26,324 nt of DNA from an uncultured Candidatus Saccharibacteria bacterium (GCA_964355995.1 CAYHFP010000001.1:1-26324); one strand, 5' to 3'; shown: positions 4,232 through 13,276, counted from the first letter of the stretch. Made by a program: numbers and translations. Notes: generated by a model not told the origin, from the letters alone.

Positions 4232-4233
4232 AG

Positions 4234-4325
4234 CGGAGGGGGTGGGAGTCGCCCGATGATGAACATCGGGCGTCGGGTGTTCATCACCCGACGAACCCAT
4301 CGGACCTTTTTTAGTCGTAGTTTTT
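4234..4325 (-). pseudogene. tRNA-Ser 3' half copy with a 42-bp insertion in the T-loop
   Basis: Minus strand: aaaactac-gactaaaaaaggtc-cgatgggttc[42 bp]gactcccaccccctccg. Confidence 0.7.
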
Positions 4326-4337
4326 CTAGCATCAAAG

Positions 4338-4386
4338 CGGAGGGGGTGGGATTTGAACCCACGAGACCCTTGCGAGCCACGGTTTT
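4338..4386 (-). pseudogene. tRNA-Ser 3' half (long variable arm, T arm, acceptor strand)
   Basis: Minus strand: aaaaccgtggctcgcaagggtctcgtgggttcaaatcccaccccctccg. Confidence 0.75.
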
Positions 4387-4399
4387 CCTAGCCTCAAAG

Positions 4400-4483
4400 C
4401 GGAGGGGGTGGGAGTCGAACCCACTTAACCTTCACAGGTCGTAGTTTTCGAAACTACTGCACCAGCCATTATGCGCCCCCTCC
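4400..4483 (-). tRNA. tRNA-Ser(CGA)
   Basis: Acceptor ggagggg/cccctcc, G73, anticodon arm gtagt-tt CGA aa-actac, long variable arm, T arm gtggg-ttcgact-cccac; CCA not encoded. Confidence 0.9.
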
Positions 4484-4513
4484 GCTTTAGTGCTAGGCGA
4501 AACTATTCCACTA

Positions 4514-4804
4514 GGGGCAAGAAACAGAATTAAAACAAATTTTAGAATTCAAAAAATGAGATGATTTCAAGGCGAAGCGAGTCAATGTAGCTTTAGACTA
4601 CATTTACGAAGCTTTAACGCACCTGCCTGCCGGTAGGCAGGGAAATCAGCCATTTTTTGACTTCCCTTTGGGCGGGTAAATTAAGGCAATCTTCGGCGTT
4701 ACTTCAGAGCGAACGATACCTATGGCATCAAATTCGCTCCTTGTGCCTTGAATCTTGCCTTAATTTACTACCGCTAAAATTGTTGTAATTCTGTTTCTTG
4801 CCCC
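4514..4804. mobile_element. 291-bp MITE-like structured element interrupting a tRNA-Ser D-loop
   Basis: Perfect 19-bp terminal inverted repeat ggggcaagaaacagaatta (4514-4532) / taattctgtttcttgcccc (4786-4804), two long internal hairpin arms, no ORF. Confidence 0.75.
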
Positions 4805-4825
4805 AGGCCACTCTGGCACCCCTCC
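4805..4825 (-). pseudogene. tRNA-Ser 5' end (acceptor strand plus first half of D arm)
   Basis: Minus strand ggaggggtgccagagtggcct, continuing after the element as tagtggaatagtttcg (4513-4498). Confidence 0.7.
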
Positions 4826-4844
4826 AAGATTCAAAGTTATTATT

Positions 4845-5594
4845 CTATATTTCTAACAATAACGGAAAATGGTCTGACCCATATGGACGCAAAGAAACAC
4901 GACTGGATTTAACCTTAACCGTCAGTGGAACTAAAATATAATCAAGCTGAATGGGGAATTTCCAAAAAGTAACTTGGCGGTAAAAACAATTTTTTAAACT
5001 ATATTCGCTTAATAATTTTGCTAAATTTTTGTTTTCGTTAATGATAATTTCCTGCCGTTTATACCCAAAGTATTTCCACAAAAAGATATTGACCAATGGT
5101 TTGCCAAAAGTATTAAAATCACCACAAATAATATTTTTTCTTTCTGGGTCTAAGTGGTCAAGCACTTCTTTAAGTTGAGCCAAACGGTGGTTTGGTCCCG
5201 TAAAACAACGAAAATGCGTATTAAAAATTCTAAATAACCCGCCAAAAGTATCAATGTCCACATAAAATGAATCGGCTTGAAAATGATGGTAGCGATCTTT
5301 GGATTTAATAGACGTATCGCCATAAGTTTTTTTGTGCGGAATAATCACCTGCTCTTTTATAGGAAAACGAGAAAAAATAACCGAGTAAAGCTTTGTTGCC
5401 TCTTTCTTTTTATTTTTAGGAATATGCACTTCGTCGCAAATGGCAATGTGCCCACCTAAATTACGGAGTAAATCAATATGAACTGCCGGAAATTCTTGCA
5501 AACAAACAACATCGGCATTTTGTTTTTTTAAAAACTCAATGGCTTTATTAATGTCTTTATTATTTTTGTAGATATTCCACGTTAAAATTTTCAT
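4845..5594 (-). CDS. Endonuclease/exonuclease/phosphatase (EEP) family protein
   Basis: LTWNI, DVVCLQE, NTH, ICGDFN, LDYI, SDHFP motifs. Confidence 0.92.
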   Translation of the reverse strand: MKILTWNIYKNNKDINKAIEFLKKQNADVVCLQEFPAVHIDLLRNLGGHIAICDEVHIPKNKKKEATKLYSVIFSRFPIKEQVIIPHKKTYGDTSIKSKDRYHHFQADSFYVDIDTFGGLFRIFNTHFRCFTGPNHRLAQLKEVLDHLDPERKNIICGDFNTFGKPLVNIFLWKYFGYKRQEIIINENKNLAKLLSEYSLKNCFYRQVTFWKFPIQLDYILVPLTVKVKSSRVSLRPYGSDHFPLLLEI

Positions 5595-5598
5595 AATA

Positions 5599-6096
5599 TT
5601 ACCAAATCAATTGGAGAATTAAAAAAGTGATACCTGCCACCCCAACGCCCGCCAAAATATCACTGGGCCAGTGGACTCCACAAAAAACTCTAGATAAACA
5701 AACCAAAAAAGTTACAAAGGTAAAAATAATGGCTAGCGGAAGATTAAATAGGAATAAGGCAAAAGAAAAAGCAAAAAAGAATGAAGAGTGACCCGAGGGA
5801 AACCCAGGGTGGTAGGGTTTTTTAATCAGTGAATCAATACTTAAAACTTCCAGTGGCCTTTTGCGTTGATAAAATAAATAAATAATTTCGTTAATAATAA
5901 ATCGGGCAAAAAAACCGGCAAAAACCGGTATAAGAAATACTGGCCAAAAGTTAATAGTATAAGCAAAAATCGCCAAAATAACTATCAAAATATACGCCAA
6001 ATATTCAGCGCAAAATATAGCAAAAAAGTCCAATATTTTGGATTTTTTTGACAGGCCATTAATTAAGTTAAATAGGTATAAATCTAAATTTAACAC
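5599..6096 (-). CDS. PAP2-family phosphatase (undecaprenyl-diphosphatase-like)
   Basis: RKRP, FPSGHS and SRVFCGVHWPSD motifs with TM helices. The start (GTG 6096) is uncertain. Confidence 0.88.
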   Translation of the reverse strand: MLNLDLYLFNLINGLSKKSKILDFFAIFCAEYLAYILIVILAIFAYTINFWPVFLIPVFAGFFARFIINEIIYLFYQRKRPLEVLSIDSLIKKPYHPGFPSGHSSFFFAFSFALFLFNLPLAIIFTFVTFLVCLSRVFCGVHWPSDILAGVGVAGITFLILQLIW

Positions 6097-6192
6097 AATG
6101 TAAATAATACCACTTTTTGACCCCAAAAACAAGGTAAAATTAAAAGGGCCCGCTTTTGGTAAAACGGGCACAAAATATTGTTATTTTGACAG

Positions 6193-6753
6193 CTAGGGGG
6201 TTAAAGACAGAACCTTTCGATAGATAGACTCCCACGACCGCACTAATTGGAAACGAGGATGAACTGAATCCTCAACAGGCATGCCAAAAGGAATAAAAAG
6301 AAACAAATTGCTCACAGCGTTAACTAATGGCCAAAGCTGAGAAGGCTTTTTAGCGATGAAAACATCAAAATCAGTAAAATACTCTGGCTCAATTTTTCTG
6401 TTTTCCACGGCGATGAAATTGAGATTAATGTATCTCTCGTAGCACCATTCATGGACAACTTTTTGACCGGCCTCAGACCGCAAGGTCACTGCAAAAAGTT
6501 GATGCCCATCGCTTTTTAACCGCCCCAAATAATAAAGCACACTATCAAACAGATCCAGCATCAATCCATTTTCTCTGGTCTCATAGACTCTTTCCTTTAG
6601 AGCAATGTATCCATCACGTGAGAGAAAATCATTGCCACGATCAATTCTTCTTAAACTTTTGCGATATTTCTTTCCTAGCAATCGCCAAGCAACATCTTCC
6701 TTTGCCCTACTACTATCAACAAAAACACCATCAAAAACAAAAGCAATTTTCAT
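6193..6753 (-). CDS. HAD-fold, 5'(3')-deoxyribonucleotidase-like protein with degenerate motif I
   Basis: MKIAFVFDGVFVDS (DxDGV-like), AVTLRS (motif II-like), VRSWESIY C-terminus; AAGGGGAG RBS before ATG 6753. Confidence 0.55.
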   Translation of the reverse strand: MKIAFVFDGVFVDSSRAKEDVAWRLLGKKYRKSLRRIDRGNDFLSRDGYIALKERVYETRENGLMLDLFDSVLYYLGRLKSDGHQLFAVTLRSEAGQKVVHEWCYERYINLNFIAVENRKIEPEYFTDFDVFIAKKPSQLWPLVNAVSNLFLFIPFGMPVEDSVHPRFQLVRSWESIYRKVLSLTP

Positions 6754-6885
6754 ATGGCTCCCCTTAATTGGAAAGGTACAGGCTAGTTTCTTTAAAAAGC
6801 ATATCAAAAAACTGAATAAATAGCAAAAAAAATCCCCCGTTGCCTTTAGCAACTAAGGGGATTGATCAGGTCTGTCTTTTAACTT

Positions 6886-7260
6886 TTACAGCCTGCTACG
6901 TTTTGGCTTTTTCGCAAAAAGGAATTGGCAATCAAAACTCCATCCATCTTGAGCGCGCACCCAATCTTCCAAGACTTCAATTTCTTGTACACGATTCAAA
7001 TTTAAAATAAATGTTCCAGGGAAAGATCCGTATTTTGCTGGACCATTACCTCTAAGGCCAAAAGCCACAATAAAATTTCCTGGTCCCGATAATGAAAAGC
7101 GAGAAATTTGAAAGGTCTCAAGTTCACGTCGAGAAACTGGCCGAAGCCATCTTCTCTTCATAGCTCGCTCAATCATTAAATCAGTTAATTTCAGATCTCT
7201 TTTACCAGGACGAAAAGTTAAAAGAACAAATCTTCCAAATTTCTCTTCTATGCATCGCAT
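6886..7260 (-). CDS. Hypothetical protein
   Basis: 124-aa ORF with AAGGGGG RBS and a downstream hairpin near 6830-6863. Confidence 0.6.
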   Translation of the reverse strand: MRCIEEKFGRFVLLTFRPGKRDLKLTDLMIERAMKRRWLRPVSRRELETFQISRFSLSGPGNFIVAFGLRGNGPAKYGSFPGTFILNLNRVQEIEVLEDWVRAQDGWSFDCQFLFAKKPKRSRL

Positions 7261-7334
7261 GCTTATTCCCCCTTAAGTAGAATAACCAACCTTAACACAT
7301 AAGGTATATTATTACCTTTTAAAAAATAATCAAG

Positions 7335-7362
7335 ACCACGTCCGCCCGCGGGCGGACGTGGT
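7335..7362. repeat. Perfect 28-bp palindrome, CCCGCGGG core
   Basis: accacgtccgcccg|cgggcggacgtggt. Confidence 0.9.
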
Positions 7363-7377
7363 GAAGCAAAAAAAATC

Positions 7378-7453
7378 TGGTGCCCTCGGTAGGAATCGAA
7401 CCTACATTTACCCCTTAGGACGGGGCCGTTCTGATCCATTGAACTACAAAGGC
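7378..7453 (-). tRNA. tRNA-Arg(CCT)
   Basis: Acceptor gcctttg/cgagggc, anticodon arm gcccc-gt CCT aa-ggggt, T loop ttcgatt, encoded CCA. Confidence 0.88.
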
Positions 7454-7460
7454 TTTGAAT

Positions 7461-8087
7461 TTAAAGTGAATCTATTAGATCTGCATAAGATTGGTCTATG
7501 AGTGAATTCACTAACTTTAAAATATTAGATCCCTTTCTAATCATAATCCTACACATACCATGCTTTGTTCTACTTTTCATTCCGCCGTCATTCATTCTTA
7601 CAAAAAATCTAGATTTTGGCAATCCCGTAATTTTAGACCAATAATTTAAACATACCCTTCTGTCCATTCCAGAAAATATTCTTATAGTGGGGGTGAGTCT
7701 ATCTCTTGAAATATTAAAAACTTTTACTAAAATATTTATACATAAATTAATCATTCTGCCATCAGAGTTTACAAAATCACATGATTTTTTACTACCCTCT
7801 GCCCAATAAAGCATAGTAAAAATTAAGGCGTGTTCTCTATGGGGCGATTTTAATATTTCCCTTGCAAAAATTTTGGCATTTTCTAAATTTCTCTCTTTTT
7901 TTTGATGGCTCCCTCCTATTTTTGACCTTAGTAAAGAAATATATTTAGGAGCAATTTTAATATTATGGACATGATGCCAAACAGTGGTCTTTGGTATAGA
8001 TAGCTCCCTTACTAACTCATTAATACTATAGCCTTTTTTCCTTAATTTTTTTAATTTTTTTAATTTTTCTGAAGAATGTATTTTCAT
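7461..8087 (-). CDS. N-terminal HTH plus putative LAGLIDADG-like nuclease-fold protein
   Basis: LRKKGYSINELVRELSIPKTTVWHHV (HTH), LYWAEGSKK and FVNSDGRMI. The fold call is from pattern recall only. Confidence 0.55.
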   Translation of the reverse strand: MKIHSSEKLKKLKKLRKKGYSINELVRELSIPKTTVWHHVHNIKIAPKYISLLRSKIGGSHQKKERNLENAKIFAREILKSPHREHALIFTMLYWAEGSKKSCDFVNSDGRMINLCINILVKVFNISRDRLTPTIRIFSGMDRRVCLNYWSKITGLPKSRFFVRMNDGGMKSRTKHGMCRIMIRKGSNILKLVNSLIDQSYADLIDSL

Positions 8088-8320
8088 ATATTAATTATAC
8101 TACATTATTAAACTAATAGAAACTATAAATTACTAATAAAGGAAAACAAAAGTTCTAATTGATAATTAATTACACTTTATCCTAAAAATTGATTGTTTTC
8201 AATAAAATTGATAAAATAGTATAAAATTCAAATATGCAAATAACGTCACCAATGATGCAAATCCGCACGTTCGTATTCGCAGTATTGGCGTAGCATTTGC
8301 ATATTGGCATTATATTCATT

Positions 8321-9364
8321 ATGAAATATTCTTCACCCATCGTAGAAATTGCAAAAAAAGTGTGTCCGGCCGTTATTACGGTCATTGTTTCTAAAGATTT
8401 ACCAAAAGTAGAAGATTTTTATTCTTTTCCTTATGGTGGCAAAGAATACATTATGCCGATGCCAGAAAAAGATGGCAAAATGCCGATAAAAACCGAAACC
8501 ATGCAAATTGGCGGAGGCTCTGGCTTTATTATTTCCAAAGATGGCTATGTGTTGACCTCAAACCACGTGGTGGCAGACACTACCGCTGATTACACCGTTA
8601 TTTTAGACCCAACTCACAAATATTCTGCCAAAGTATTATCACGAAACCCTATTAATGACACTGCTGTTTTAAAAATTGAAGGCAAAAATTTCCCCTACAT
8701 TGATTTGGCTGATTCCGGTAAAATTCAACTAGGAGAAGAAGTGGTAGCGGTGGGAAATGCTCTTGGAGAATTTAATGACACATTGTCAGCCGGTATTATT
8801 TCCGGACTTTCCCGCTACATTAGTGCTTTTGGAGGATTGGATCACCAAATGCAAAATTTACGAGGCTTAATTCAAACCGATGCCGCCATTAATCCTGGCA
8901 ATTCCGGAGGACCATTGGTAAATATGGACGGCCAAGTCATTGGCATTAACACCGCGATGATTATGGGGGCCCAAAATATTGGATTTGCTATTCCGATAAA
9001 TTACGCTAAAAAAGATTTAGAAGAAGTGAAAAAATTTGGTAAAATTGTGGTGCCGTTTTTGGGCGTAAAATATGTCCTACTTTCCAAAGAAATGGCCAAA
9101 GCTAATAAATTACCCGTAGAAGATGGAGCTTTAGTGGTGCGCGAAGCGCTAGGAGAATCTCCTGTCATTAAAGGCTCATCAGCCGATAGAGCCGGCATTA
9201 AAGAATTTGATATTATTGTAGAATGTAACGGCCAACAAATTACCATGAAAAATCCTCTAGCGGAACTGATGCAAAAATGCCCCATTGGAGAAGAATCAAG
9301 TTTTAAGGTTTTGCGAGATGGCAAAGAATTAATTCTTAAAGTTATTTTATCGGAAAAGGAATAA
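8321..9364 (+). CDS. htrA: HtrA/DegP-family serine protease with one PDZ domain
   Basis: GSGFII, LTSNHVV, IQTDAAINPGNSGGPL, C-terminal PDZ. Confidence 0.95.
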   Translation: MKYSSPIVEIAKKVCPAVITVIVSKDLPKVEDFYSFPYGGKEYIMPMPEKDGKMPIKTETMQIGGGSGFIISKDGYVLTSNHVVADTTADYTVILDPTHKYSAKVLSRNPINDTAVLKIEGKNFPYIDLADSGKIQLGEEVVAVGNALGEFNDTLSAGIISGLSRYISAFGGLDHQMQNLRGLIQTDAAINPGNSGGPLVNMDGQVIGINTAMIMGAQNIGFAIPINYAKKDLEEVKKFGKIVVPFLGVKYVLLSKEMAKANKLPVEDGALVVREALGESPVIKGSSADRAGIKEFDIIVECNGQQITMKNPLAELMQKCPIGEESSFKVLRDGKELILKVILSEKE

Positions 9365-9372
9365 TTCGTAAC

Positions 9373-9404
9373 AAAAAAACCAGCCTGTAAGGGCTGGTTT
9401 TTTT
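9373..9404. terminator. Bidirectional rho-independent terminator
   Basis: aaaaaaaccagcc-tgtaag-ggctggttttttt between convergent genes. Confidence 0.8.
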
Positions 9405-9440
9405 ATTCTATTTTCTACTTTCTAGATTCTATTTTCTCGC

Positions 9441-10184
9441 CTAGAGTTGCACTTTTGAAAACTGATAAGCTCCAACTGCCAAAATAACCAACGTAACGCC
9501 AACTAAAACACTAATACTTAACATTGGAGAAAAAACGCTCACTCCACTAAAAGCTCCGCGCAGGCCATCAACTCCATAAGAAAATGGATTTATTTTTGTC
9601 ACAAATTTCATCGCCATTGGTAAATTTTTAATCGGAAAAATCGCACCTGAAAGATAAAATAAAGGTTGAACCAAAAAGTTAAAAATCAAAGGAAAACTTT
9701 GCATATCATCAAGTCGAGCGGCAATAGTAGCGCCCAAAGCGGAAGACAACATCGCCACCAAGAATAAGAATAAAAATGCGAGCGGCAAACTGGCAAGCTC
9801 CGGCCGGAATCCAGCGACTAGTGTAATTAAAAATACTAAAATTCCTTGAATCATCGCCACCGTTGCTCCACCCAGTGTTTTACCAAGTAAAATTTCAAAC
9901 CGCGAAACTGGCGCCACAAACGTTTCTTTTAAAAATCCGAATTGCTTATCCCAAATAATTTCCAAACCGGTAAAAATAGAGGTAAAAAGCACCGTCATCA
10001 CAATAATCCCCGGAGCTAAAAACTGAATATAGTTTCCCGCACCAGCTTTGGCAAAAACTGGCCCAAAACCAAACCCAATGGCTAGCAAAAAAATAATGGG
10101 TTGTCCCAAGGCACCAACAATGCTGGCCTTTTTTCTAATAAATCTTTTAAGTTGGCGAACCCATAATATATAAATTGCAGTCAT
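9441..10184 (-). CDS. ABC-2 type exporter permease (DrrB-like)
   Basis: YIQFLAPGII, DKQFGFLKETFVAPVSR, INPFSYGVDGLR. Confidence 0.92.
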   Translation of the reverse strand: MTAIYILWVRQLKRFIRKKASIVGALGQPIIFLLAIGFGFGPVFAKAGAGNYIQFLAPGIIVMTVLFTSIFTGLEIIWDKQFGFLKETFVAPVSRFEILLGKTLGGATVAMIQGILVFLITLVAGFRPELASLPLAFLFLFLVAMLSSALGATIAARLDDMQSFPLIFNFLVQPLFYLSGAIFPIKNLPMAMKFVTKINPFSYGVDGLRGAFSGVSVFSPMLSISVLVGVTLVILAVGAYQFSKVQL

Positions 10185-10191
10185 GTGTGTG

Positions 10192-10351
10192 AATTTGAAA
10201 TTTGAAATTTACAATTTGAAATCAAGCCGCGCGCCGTGGCGCGCGGCTGAATATCTAAATTATTAAATTTGAAAACGACGTCGGTTTTTAATTATTTTAA
10301 ATTCACTATTTTCAAATTGATTTCAAATTTCAAATTGTAAATTTCAAATTC
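10192..10351. repeat. Heptamer-built (TTTGAAA/TTTCAAA) inverted-repeat element containing a GC palindrome at 10225-10248
   Basis: Left end is the approximate reverse complement of the right end; the right end nearly matches 19274-19319; agccgcgcgcc-gt-ggcgcgcggct inside. Confidence 0.7.
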
Positions 10352-10354
10352 AAG

Positions 10355-11326
10355 TTAACGCATTAACTTGTTACTAATCCTCATCCGATTTACGCCGGCA
10401 TTTACCGCCTCTTCTCTAATTTTACTTCCGGTTAAAGTAATAAAAGCATCTTCCAAATTTTTGGCGCCAGCTTTTTGGATAATTTCTTGCACCGTTCCAA
10501 TAATTAAAATTTTCCCGTGGTCAATGATAGCAATTCTTTGAGCCATTCTTTCCACCTCTTCCATATGATGAGTGGTGAAAAAAATCGTCACATTTTCTGT
10601 TTTGTTTAAGTTATGGATATAATTCCAAATATGATTTCTGGTTTGCGGGTCAAGTCCAATGGTTGGTTCGTCTAAAAATAAAACTTTTGGGTTATGTAAA
10701 AGTCCGCGGGCAATTTCTAAGCGACGCTTCATCCCCCCAGAAAAAGTTTTCACATACGAATCCTTGCGATCCCAAAGCTCCACCAATTCCAGTAAATTTT
10801 TAATTCGCTCTTGGTAGCCCTGATTTACAAAACTCTTTCGAGGGATTTCCTCTAAATTTTGAGGTAGAAATTTGATAGAATTTTTCGGCCTAGCCAACGG
10901 CTCCGCCGAAAAATTATAGCGAATTTGTAACCAAAATTTAGAGAAAAGACCCGAAAAGTATTCTAAGACGGGAGTTTTGTAATTCAGGGCTTGATTGTCT
11001 TTTTTTATTCCATACAAAATAGCGTGAAATTGCATATTTTCATAAGCGGTTAATTCGTTGTCTAGGCTGGGGTCTTGAAACACAATCCCAAAAGATTTAC
11101 GAGTTTGGTGGGGGTTTTCGGTTACATTGTGTCCATTAAGAAAAACTTCACCGGTAGTCGGTTTTAAAAGCGTAGTCAGCATTTTAATAGTGGTAGTTTT
11201 TCCAGCTCCATTAGGGCCCAAAAATGCGAAAACCTCTCCGGTTTTAACACTAAAACTGAGGTCATCAACGGCCGTAAAATTGCCGTATTTTTTAGTTAAA
11301 TTTTTTGTCTCTATTATATTTTCCAT
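10355..11326 (-). CDS. ABC exporter ATP-binding subunit (DrrA-like) with an in-frame insertion of about 58-60 aa
   Basis: Walker A GPNGAGKTT, Q-loop VFQD, signature FSGGMKRRL, Walker B LFLDEPT, H-loop TTHHM. Confidence 0.93.
   Translation of the reverse strand: MENIIETKNLTKKYGNFTAVDDLSFSVKTGEVFAFLGPNGAGKTTTIKMLTTLLKPTTGEVFLNGHNVTENPHQTRKSFGIVFQDPSLDNELTAYENMQFHAILYGIKKDNQALNYKTPVLEYFSGLFSKFWLQIRYNFSAEPLARPKNSIKFLPQNLEEIPRKSFVNQGYQERIKNLLELVELWDRKDSYVKTFSGGMKRRLEIARGLLHNPKVLFLDEPTIGLDPQTRNHIWNYIHNLNKTENVTIFFTTHHMEEVERMAQRIAIIDHGKILIIGTVQEIIQKAGAKNLEDAFITLTGSKIREEAVNAGVNRMRISNKLMR
10816..10991. mobile_element. About 176-bp palindromic MITE-like element inside the ABC ATPase CDS
   Basis: agccctgatttacaaaactc (10816-10835) versus gagttttgtaattcagggct (10972-10991): 19/20 inverted match; the interior is also quasi-palindromic. 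Confidence 0.8.
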
Positions 11327-11367
11327 GAATTATATTATAATAGTTAAATAGTTTAAATTCAATAAAT

Positions 11368-11392
11368 AAAAATCGCCAGATAGGCGATTTTT
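11368..11392 (-). terminator. Terminator after the GIY-YIG ORF
   Basis: aaaaatcgcc-agata-ggcgattttt. Confidence 0.6.
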
Positions 11393-11646
11393 TATGGTGG
11401 AAGTCCATTTTTGAAAAACTCTTTTAATTTCCTTCTTCCTCCGCCACCCTTCCAGTATAATTCTCTTTTTCTCGCCTCTTTCGATGTTTCAAATTTTTCA
11501 GAAAATAGTAATTCTAAGGGTATTCGGTTTCTGGTAGCAATATTTTTCCCAGAGTTGTGTTCTGCTAATCTCCTTTCTAAGTTATATGTATATCCAACAT
11601 ATGTTTTATGATCTTTGAGACTTTTTAGAATATAAATATAAAACAT
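11392..11646 (-). CDS. Small GIY-YIG nuclease family protein
   Basis: YIYILKS..YVGYT..LERRLAEHN..EARKRELYWK. Confidence 0.9.
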   Translation of the reverse strand: MFYIYILKSLKDHKTYVGYTYNLERRLAEHNSGKNIATRNRIPLELLFSEKFETSKEARKRELYWKGGGGRRKLKEFFKNGLPP

Positions 11647-11710
11647 TCAATTGTGAGCGGGTCGCCCAATTTTAATTGGGACGAACCTCGCTCAATTTTT
11701 CCCTGAAAAA

Positions 11711-11757
11711 TTGAGCGGGTATGGGGAGTCCGTCCGCCAGCGGGCAGACTAGAACCC
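11711..11757 (-). pseudogene. Duplicate tRNA-Gly 3' end with a 21-bp hairpin in the T-loop
   Basis: ttgagcgggtatggggagtc[cgtccgccagcgggcagacta]gaaccc versus the uninterrupted sequence at 11920-11945. Confidence 0.8.
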
Positions 11758-11922
11758 ATCGCTTCGCTCTTTAGAAACCCAAGGTTTCTAACGCGTCCAC
11801 TTCGTGGCGCTGTTTTCCTACACGGAGGGGACACCGAGTTTCCCCTCCGACCCACCCCTCGGGTTCGACTCCTTCCAACACCACTCAAAAAAAAGATAGA
11901 CTTGCAGTCTACTTTTTATTTG

Positions 11923-11993
11923 AGCGGGTATGGGGAGTCGAACCCCACTCATTAGCTTGGAAAGCTAAGGTAATACCGATATACGATACCCGC
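11923..11993 (-). tRNA. tRNA-Gly(TCC)
   Basis: Acceptor gcgggta/tacccgc, anticodon arm ttagc-tt TCC aa-gctaa; CCA not encoded. Confidence 0.93.
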
Positions 11994-12701: not shown

Positions 12702-12778
12702 CAGGAAAGGGAGAGCCAAATGCTTAATCCACAGGTTGATTGATTGACGTTAAAGCCACATTTGTTACAATTAAGTAT

Positions 12779-13276
12779 ATGGTTCAAGTCAGTTGCAAAA
12801 TATGCTCCAAAGAATTTTATGCCAAACCAAGTTGGATTAATATCGGCAATGGAAAATATTGTTCAATGGAATGTAGTCAGAAATCACAGATAAAAGGCAC
12901 CCATGTTAAATGTGAAATATGTAAAAAAGAAATATGGAGAACACCAAGCAAAATAAGGCGTTCTAAAAGCAGAAAATATTTTTGCAATAAATCATGTCAA
13001 ACTCTTTGGCGTAATAGCATAGTATATGTCGGCAAAAATCATCCGAATTGGAAGAATGGGGGAACTATGTATCGAAAGATATTACAAAGAAGTACAAAAG
13101 AAAAAATCTGTTGTTTATGCGAAATAAAAGACGAACGCATATTAGCAGTCCACCATATAGATAAAAACAGAAAAAATTCTAAATTGGAAAACCTTATATG
13201 GCTTTGTCATAACTGTCATTTTTTAGTTCATCACGATACAAAAACAGCAAAAAAACTTATGGAGGCTATAGTGTAG
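12779..13276 (+). CDS. HNH endonuclease with tandem N-terminal zinc-finger repeats
   Basis: CKIC..YCSMEC, CEIC..FCNKSC, then CCLC..LAVHHIDKNRKN...NLIWLCHNCHFLVH. Confidence 0.85.
   Translation: MVQVSCKICSKEFYAKPSWINIGNGKYCSMECSQKSQIKGTHVKCEICKKEIWRTPSKIRRSKSRKYFCNKSCQTLWRNSIVYVGKNHPNWKNGGTMYRKILQRSTKEKICCLCEIKDERILAVHHIDKNRKNSKLENLIWLCHNCHFLVHHDTKTAKKLMEAIV

Follow-up and report, generated by a model that had tools for sequence, protein, structure and literature searches.

Hairpins at a single T-loop point in displaced tRNA ends of an uncultured Candidatus Saccharibacteria bacterium, a possible footprint of tRNA-invading cassettes

Why do short hairpins come to lie, again and again, at one point of sequences derived from the T-arm of transfer RNA (tRNA) genes? 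The question is raised by a 26,324-nt stretch of DNA from an uncultured Candidatus Saccharibacteria bacterium (GCA_964355995.1, CAYHFP010000001.1:1-26324, hereafter the window), in which a sequence-only reading had noticed three hairpins that split T-arm-like sequences at TTC^GA (the caret marks the split). All three indeed lie on the minus strand between C56 and R57 of a T-loop-like sequence (4251-4292, 11731-11751 and 11664-11682). The window is contig C1 of genome G000, a 679-kb assembly of 74 contigs with a G+C content of about 37% and an estimated completeness of 98.9%, which fits an ultra-small, Patescibacteria-like bacterium; 38 tRNAs were predicted by ARAGORN in G000, six of them in the window. 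By using ARAGORN and Rfam for tRNAs, Pfam, PDB and NCBIfam for a neighboring nuclease and a BLAST census of tRNA fragments, together with comparisons to genomes of the same genus and order, we arrived at an account that is on balance probable: tRNA-invading cassettes, which in their full form carry a minimal GIY-YIG nuclease gene, and derivatives of them without an open reading frame (ORF) have their point of entry or junction at C56^R57; both leave behind a regenerated tRNA gene and a stump capped by a hairpin, with further spread of the hairpin units from stump to stump.

The distribution of split tRNA ends over the whole genome was obtained by searching G000 with the last 16 nt of every tRNA (from position 57). 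Ten extra copies of tRNA tails were found, and in seven of them, across six tRNA species, a hairpin stands exactly at C56^R57: two Ser tails and one Ala tail are split by a 42-mer, the Gly-tcc and Lys tails by related 21-mers, and the Gln and Ile tails by inserts of 29-30 nt. The other three comprise two copies with intact loops and one with a small substitution. Small scars are also observed at the same point (CG to TT, and AA to TAT), and exact direct repeats of the tRNA 3' part, 18-20 nt long, are present at six G000 loci. In the window, all hairpin-split T-arms lie in non-functional copies of tRNA 3' ends. When insertion positions were tabulated over the tRNA fragments of G000, for which the BLAST census returned 15 loci, only two hairpins stood away from this point, both in 5' stumps: one at 24/25 (tRNA-Ala) and one at 23/24 (tRNA-Cys). 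The former position is occupied by a 20-nt CCTGCC palindrome that also occurs in unrelated contexts, and T-loop specificity does not hold for every hairpin. The earlier proposal of a site-specific process at TTC^GA is nevertheless borne out by the seven of ten tail duplicates, by about 19 of 22 copies of the 42-mer described below and by several unrelated hairpin families that use the same T-loop point in many tRNA species and genomes. Hidden intron-containing or split tRNA genes were also sought: ARAGORN predicted no new tRNA in G000 when each hairpin was deleted in silico, allowing 0-5 nt of margin at either end, and Rfam at E <= 10 gave nothing relevant over the Ser or Gly locus.

Chance or an assembly artefact is effectively refuted as the source of this pattern. 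The assembly is in 74 contigs and an N gap interrupts the Ser array on C9, but more than 20 independent assemblies show the same architecture, at dozens of loci; the repeats are exact, empty sites exist and the controls lie near zero. The array in question (C9:596-890) belongs to tRNA-Ser(gct) and has two tail copies with a 10-N scaffold gap inside, and the repeat-rich tRNA loci of the G000 assembly may be partly collapsed.

The first of the three hairpin sites lies at the tRNA-Ser locus. Downstream of tRNA-Ser(cga), on the minus strand, two 62-nt units (A and B) repeat the 3' half of the tRNA. In unit B, a 42-nt insert splits GGGTTC from GACTCCC and the following tail, its placement being ambiguous by 1 nt (a G). 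The insert folds into two 21-nt hairpins with 8-bp stems (-19.6 kcal/mol, z = -7.8) and the loops ATGAA and TTCAT. The two had been described as reverse-complement variants, and hairpin 2 does match the reverse complement of hairpin 1 at 15 of 21 positions, the differences being compensatory changes in the stems. With the 42 nt removed, unit B becomes a 62-nt unit alignable to the neighboring unit A; a dispersed repeat, the 42-mer, has been inserted cleanly here.

Pattern searches for this repeat covered 26 genus genomes and 401 order genomes. Copies of the GC-stem 42-mer were found in ten genomes of the order, namely G000 (the window Ser locus, C9 and C30) and nine others, with one to four copies per genome, and its context was determined from the 22 copies whose flanks were read. 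About 19 of these, spread over many tRNA species, stand at (G)GTTC^[GA]AnTCC with a tRNA tail behind it; of the others, one lies at TTC^GAA of an apparent anticodon loop and two lie elsewhere. T-loop-type sites make up only about 13% of the GTTC[GA]A sites in G000, and backwards control patterns were essentially empty. Throughout the family, the loops and the closing TG/CA are conserved, the stems covary and both orientations are seen. Insertion is 3' of a fixed GTTC in about 19 of the 22 copies, with no duplicated flanking bases; a target duplication of 1-2 nt (CG or R57) was considered and is contradicted by loci L090 and L093. In G268, the copies share 92-100% mutual identity, two of them being identical, and occupy four different tails. 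A tRNA-Leu(cag) series was also found: G425 is empty (naive), and a single stump shared by G284 and G268 holds a 29-nt double hairpin in the former and a 42-mer in the latter. Moreover, a 40-nt hairpin pair in G001 splits a nearly full-length pseudo-tRNA-Ser at the same point.

These properties also suit a serious rival, in which the hairpins are autonomous miniature transposons of the REP/REPIN or IS200/IS605-PATE kind, unrelated to GIY-YIG nucleases, moved as single-stranded DNA by an HUH (Y1) transposase, inserted 3' of GTTC and surviving only in pre-made stumps. Elements of IS200/IS605 chemistry typically insert beside a fixed tetranucleotide with no duplication, and the 42-mer enters cleanly 3' of (G)GTTC, only GTTC being constant on the left. 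REP/BIME/REPIN sequences with their RAYT (Y1 HUH) enzymes and IS200/IS605-derived palindromes likewise share with the 42-mer the short hairpins, and the two mutually inverted hairpins, found here in both orientations, recall REP doublets. The near-identical copies within a genome imply recent spread, and the different hairpin pairs in the same stump of G268 and G284 suggest precise excision and re-insertion. In addition, G000 possesses Y1-transposase-like genes, as do 16 of 26 genus genomes and about 7 of 9 carriers of the 42-mer. However, against the genus background of 16/26 this association is statistically weak; the carrier genome G408 has no Y1 match, and in G272 no 42-mers flank the Y1 gene, though one copy lies about 800 nt from it. 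The G000 Y1 gene is itself flanked by a different, AT-rich hairpin. One to four copies per genome is also far below the tens to hundreds of REP systems, and we know of no report of T-loop targeting by REP/RAYT or IS200/IS605 systems. Furthermore, this route explains neither the absence of an insert-free stump in the Leu series nor the complete GIY-YIG cassettes that end in the same GGTTC-hairpin structure, and we regard it as unlikely, if still to be reckoned with.

The G000 gene just mentioned (C7:11617-12345, minus strand) is a RAYT/IS200-like Y1 (HUH) ORF of about 225 aa (open frame 242 aa) with the hairpin TATAGACGTCCAACGTCTATA on both sides, of which the genome has about nine copies; no TnpB (IS605 ORF-B) was found in G000. 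A rolling-circle mechanism of IS91 type, which needs GTTC beside the element end, was also considered: five carrier genomes gave no Y2 match, and the control likewise matched nowhere. A near-invariant 20-nt palindrome, CCTGCCTGCCGGTAGGCAGG, is dispersed over about 14 G000 loci, with the window copy at 4622..4641, upstream of the tRNA-Ser locus, a copy at C15:6092 that occupies the exact center of another palindrome and a copy at C21:11921 immediately 5' of tRNA-Glu.

A different type of junction was observed at tRNA-Gly(tcc) (Table 1). In the congener G002, the flank that follows the displaced Gly tail of G000 stands directly 3' of tRNA-Gly; with this empty site as reference, G000 has therefore gained 189 nt plus a 20-nt direct repeat (209 nt). 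Read from the tRNA, the 189-nt module contains first a terminator-like hairpin, then a diverged copy of the T-arm and tail in inverted orientation (~11861-11885), a conserved structured core (~11759-11850), GGGTTC (11752-11757) and the 21-nt hairpin (-5.8 kcal/mol, z = -2.6), which sits between GGGTTC and the 20-nt tail copy and has its closest relative on C55, beside tRNA-Lys. As judged from the alignment, this hairpin is the variable end of a 209-nt composite insertion that also made the duplicate, rather than a free insertion. The third hairpin (-4.3 kcal/mol, z = -3.1) lies in an older stump just 5' of a GIY-YIG gene, and counterparts of the site were found in G002 and at the paralogous tRNA-Gly-gcc locus on C51, with a different inner hairpin in each; because the site is conserved in both, it represents an older layer of the same kind. 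The view of three independent insertions thus holds for the Ser 42-mer, whereas the Gly hairpin ends a composite and the third belongs to the older layer. The T-arm-like structure that had been seen at 11655-11692 does hold a hairpin inside GGTTC/GAC, but its outer "T-arm" is only a truncated tail copy.

Table 1. Positions of features at the tRNA-Ser and tRNA-Gly loci, counted in nucleotides from the first letter of the window
Feature	Position	Strand	Basis
Unit B tail: tRNA-Ser(cga) 3' end from G57, copied exactly	4233..4250	-	100% over 18-19 nt
42-nt double-hairpin element between C56 and G57 of unit B	4251..4292	-	Fold; family copies
Unit B, 5' part: trailer-like sequence and decayed tRNA-Ser 3' half, through T-loop GGGTTC	4293..4336	-	62-nt repeat family D1/D2
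Unit A: trailer and displaced 3' half of the original resident tRNA-Ser(cga)	4337..4398	-	Intact T-loop TTCAAAT, no hairpin
Intact tRNA-Ser(cga)	4399..4483	-	ARAGORN; Rfam; comparison with tRNA-Ser(cga) of relatives
84-aa minimal GIY-YIG nuclease gene, UPF0213/YhbQ type, catalytic domain only	11392..11646	-	Pfam PF01541, E = 3.5e-17
Older stump GAGCG-AGGTTC / 19-nt hairpin / GAC-CCGCTC, a truncated tRNA-Gly tail	11655..11692	-	Kept in G002 and C51
Third-site 19-nt hairpin between GGTTC and GAC+CCGCTCA	11664..11682	-	-4.3 kcal/mol, z = -3.1
13-bp perfect hairpin: last tail bases and trailer with their inverted copy	11689..11717	-	I1; same-position hairpin in G002 and C51
Original tRNA-Gly tail, now displaced: from G57 through the 3' end, with 2-3 nt more	11711..11730	-	Exact 20-nt direct repeat of 11920-11939
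21-nt TA-hairpin-G module end, abutting G57 of the displaced tail	11731..11751	-	Fold; shared frame in genus
189-nt module 3' of tRNA-Gly	11731..11919	-	Empty-site alignment, absent from G002; module family; core covariation
Intact tRNA-Gly(tcc)	11922..11993	-	ARAGORN; Rfam; 100% identical gene in congener G002

Integrases reportedly fall into sublocation classes within tRNA genes, as set out by Williams in 2002, and the direct repeats could be read as attL/attR footprints of tyrosine-integrase elements that used the T-loop sublocation and have since been deleted, the hairpins being secondary. The repeats cover the stretch between T-loop and tRNA 3' end, as with gene-restoring tRNA-integrating elements, and the arrays of displaced tails resemble serial integrations. 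The T-loop is also a documented strand-exchange site, for example in mycobacteriophage Ms6 (PMC1762012), where, as here, the element carries the 3' part of the tRNA, regenerates the gene and leaves a displaced direct repeat. Unlike in such T-loop-crossover elements, the units described here measure only 60-210 nt, have a hairpin at the joint and lack an integrase; a hairpin in the middle of a core site is at odds with integrase chemistry, and the repeat begins at R57 instead of spanning the 7-nt loop that the overlap region would need. PF00589 has one match in G000, Xer-sized and on C38, and none near any stump. Such footprints are very unlikely because the genome holds this single Xer-like recombinase.

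The module at tRNA-Gly(tcc) belongs to a family that is also present in G000 after Gly-gcc, Lys, Ile and, in part, Gln, and in relatives after Arg, Pro, Asp, Ser and Leu. About 26 loci of the genus have in common the frame GGTTC-TA[hairpin]G-GAnTCC; the stems within the frame are unrelated and reach up to 30 nt, and the commonest insert in the genus is the 10-mer TAGCGAAGCG. The CCTGCC palindrome mentioned above is nested secondarily in this 10-mer at C6 and C59, because the tRNA-Arg junction of G004 is without it.

The core of the module forms a motif of about 95-110 nt in its own right, which was found in the window (11759-11850, minus strand), in G000 at C12:11490-11556, C41:2461-2554 and C51:2389-2457, and at about 50 loci in the genus. 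It comprises two covarying hairpins, an invariant hairpin UUAGAAACC-nnn-GGUUUCUAA and the invariant single-stranded segments GUGwAGGAAAACAG and GGAGCGA, with compensatory changes in 11 of 24 predicted pairs and no Rfam match. Most copies lie away from tRNAs, and several stand directly before start codons (dnaJ-like, L10-like); the motif is a candidate for a new cis-regulatory RNA or small RNA, or for an old miniature inverted-repeat transposable element. An origin of the module from transfer-messenger RNA (tmRNA), whose 3' end GTGTAGGAAwwyC...GGTTC resembles, was rejected, as ssrA lies elsewhere (the true tmRNA is at C5:11260-11615, beside smpB) and no significant similarity was found. A second structured motif occurs at C16:13740-13930 (two tandem copies) and C6:12427-12520 of G000, between a tRNA (Trp, Gln) and downstream elements; it starts with caattctgcgcc, ends in a hairpin around aggtatagtattgtacct and in C16 lies upstream of a GIY-YIG gene. 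In addition, inverted hairpin pairs of ATTCCCGCgaagGCGGGAAT and its mirror, about 30 nt apart, are present at C25:8146-8211, C33:48-100, C49:4823-4888, C51:4385-4438 and C73:1054-1119, several of them near tRNA genes.

The constancy of the TA-hairpin-G frame while its stems change raises the alternative that a split T-arm with an expanded loop is itself a selected functional structure, such as a tRNA-like 3' end of the core RNA, a processing or termination signal, or a decoy. The covariation of the core in 11/24 pairs, the conservation of the stump between G268 and G284 and the ability of the module ends to pair, with the inverted tail copy on the left, would agree with such a role. On the other hand, presence and absence vary among congeners, the core usually occurs without any T-arm, the stumps have no 5' acceptor strand and the inserts range from 2 to about 60 nt with unrelated sequences; a selected function of this kind seems very unlikely.

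The reading in which C56^R57 is a cassette junction draws on complete cassettes found in relatives. In G013 (L144), 6 nt separate tRNA-Leu(taa) from a GIY-YIG ORF, which extends through GTGGGTTC; next come a double hairpin (about 60 nt) and AACTCCCAC with the displaced tail. In G021 (L023), the order is tRNA-Arg, GIY-YIG, GGGTTC, 42-mer and tail. A comparison of a cassette with a decayed counterpart at tRNA-Gly(ccc)/tRNA-Thr (G004 versus G001) was discarded, the loci not being comparable. G000 itself contains seven small GIY-YIG genes in 679 kb, four of them within 300 nt of a tRNA; across the genus, such genes occur in 25 of 26 genomes, and 18 of 30 sampled genes lie within about 400 nt of a co-oriented tRNA. 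The window copy encodes an 84-aa protein whose best PDB relatives are the UPF0213 proteins 1YWL and 1ZG2; a C-terminal DNA-binding domain is absent from this protein, and the NCBIfam intron-endonuclease model scores far below its cut-off.

A cassette of 5'-side design was also found in G000 (C51:4004-4305, L150), where a 23-nt tRNA-Cys stump is followed by a 30-nt palindrome and a GIY-YIG ORF ending inside the intact tRNA-Cys. The last five codons and the stop of this ORF are encoded by the tRNA-Cys 5' end, of which the stump is a 23-nt direct repeat; the same design occurs in G023 (L141). Other free-standing nuclease-like ORFs abut tRNA 3' ends as well, one in the window at 12740-13276 (plus strand), directly after tRNA-Arg(tct) and with weak zinc-finger and HNH matches, and another on C27 of G000, downstream of tRNA-Leu(caa), which starts on the CCA end of the tRNA and has a LAGLIDADG-like motif (read by eye only).

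According to the proposed mechanism, T-arm DNA would be broken or recombined by cassette-associated machinery at the dyad center of GGTTC|GAnCC, between C56 and R57, the break being made by the GIY-YIG protein or by another T-arm-recognising enzyme. The cassette would carry its own copy of the tRNA end and thereby regenerate an intact tRNA, and the original end would be displaced downstream as a stump, capped by the GGTTC-hairpin terminus of the cassette. Its right end would consist of (G)GTTC and one or two GC-rich hairpins, and the stump would therefore always resemble a T-arm split at TTC^GA; the hairpin may be the end of the element, or a plug that destroys the target motif in the stump. 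Full cassettes would carry the minimal GIY-YIG gene, most copies, including all three in the window, being ORF-less or decayed. The derivatives may be of several kinds, namely the 42-nt double hairpin, the module of about 190 nt with structured core and TA-hairpin-G end, and the older truncated stump, and hairpin units may spread alone or be exchanged among stumps within a genome. This model is the simplest that covers clean insertions, composite junctions and small scars at one point. The sparing of functional tRNAs, which the sequence-only reading had attributed to selection against hits, may still owe something to selection, but selection is not needed if the hairpin is built into the cassette beside the displaced tail and the tRNA is regenerated by the cassette.

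Replacement of whole tRNAs accompanies the process, as gene comparisons show at two loci. The tRNA-Ser(cga) of G000 has a body of tga type and is therefore an incoming replacement gene, and unit A matches the cga gene of congeners (84-93% identity to the 3' half of intact tRNA-Ser(cga/gga) genes); in G268, the tRNA-Leu(cag) has a body of gag type. A nested arrangement was also noted in the window (4337-4825, minus strand) and at C30:7490-7820, where remnants of an older tRNA copy, its 5' part on one side and its 3' part on the other, enclose an intact gene for the same tRNA (Ser-cga and Ala-tgc, respectively), which is flanked by inverted repeats of 11-40 nt; at the Ser locus, the outer 3' half matches the functional tRNA-Ser(cga) of congeners.

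Phage T4 SegB, which is more than twice as long as the 84-aa GIY-YIG protein, offers a precedent for a nuclease of this kind. It is a free-standing GIY-YIG homing endonuclease encoded in a phage tRNA cluster; its 27-bp site starts at the T-arm motif GGTTCRANTCC, which it recognises, and ends at the tRNA 3' end, where it cuts after CCAR (PMC2330249). In both systems a GIY-YIG gene lies among tRNA genes, and the SegB recognition motif and cut site are the two limits of the segment duplicated here. Empty and filled alleles occur at tRNA-Gly (G002/G000) and in the tRNA-Leu series. Unlike the proteins considered here, SegB has a DNA-binding domain and a phage host, and neither hairpin plugs nor duplicates from regenerated tRNAs have been described for it.

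Several points weigh against the cassette account. The 84-aa GIY-YIG proteins are without the DNA-binding domain of SegB or I-TevI, their cleavage specificity being putative, and the cut made by SegB falls at the tRNA 3' end, outside the T-loop (PMC2330249). Most hairpin-split stumps in G000 have no adjacent nuclease gene (C55, C59, C6, C30, C9 and the Ser locus), and the GIY-YIG gene of the window lies outside the stump and not between tRNA and stump. Cassette decay alone can hardly account for the identical 42-mers at different tails; independent hairpin mobility or gene conversion is needed in addition. The core occurs mostly away from tRNAs and may therefore be an unrelated structured RNA caught in the locus. 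Finally, the account does not explain by what route a cassette comes to carry the matching tail of each tRNA species.

In fungal mitochondrial genomes, double-hairpin elements (DHEs) occur together with mobile endonuclease ORFs (GIY-YIG/LAGLIDADG), which bring along a substitute for the end of their host gene. The DHEs, known from Allomyces and further fungal mitochondrial DNAs, in the account of Paquin et al. (2000) as cited in PMC3787672, resemble the present hairpins in being GC-rich paired stem-loops in an AT-rich genome, with compensatory stem changes, nested insertions and a mobility deduced from presence and absence. They differ in being mitochondrial and, so far as that account goes, in having no reported T-loop target; a relationship in sequence is not to be expected. 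Further analogues are the small dispersed repeats (SDR) of heterocystous cyanobacteria, which differ from the hairpins here in phylum and sequences and are not known to show T-loop specificity or any link to nuclease cassettes. According to Elhai and colleagues in 2008, SDR are reportedly mobile hairpin units of 21-27 nt with no known enzyme, and they are said to insert into the loops of other hairpins and into each other. The literature search found analogues only, namely SegB, T-loop integrases and the fungal DHEs, with no description of T-loop-specific palindromic elements or of GIY-YIG cassettes in Patescibacteria tRNA genes.

These findings raise the tentative possibility, which we put forward with some reserve, of an undescribed class of tRNA-gene parasites in Patescibacteria, in which GIY-YIG nucleases of about 85 aa and 42-nt hairpin elements would recognise the universal T-arm motif, break or enter it at its dyad center, regenerate the tRNA and cap the displaced end with exchangeable hairpins. 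Stumps of tRNAs and hairpin-split T-arms provide a recognisable footprint for mapping such invasions, and may confuse tRNA and tmRNA finders. If the proposal is true, few known site-specific mobile elements would be as small as the 42-nt unit, whose target specificity would be nearly absolute, and the widespread, uncharacterised UPF0213/YhbQ family of mini GIY-YIG proteins would have a testable function in nicking or cleaving T-arm DNA. Moreover, the cassettes would drive whole-tRNA replacement, as for tRNA-Ser(cga) in G000 and tRNA-Leu(cag) in G268, which would explain the overwriting, duplication and remoulding of tRNA genes in ultra-small genomes.

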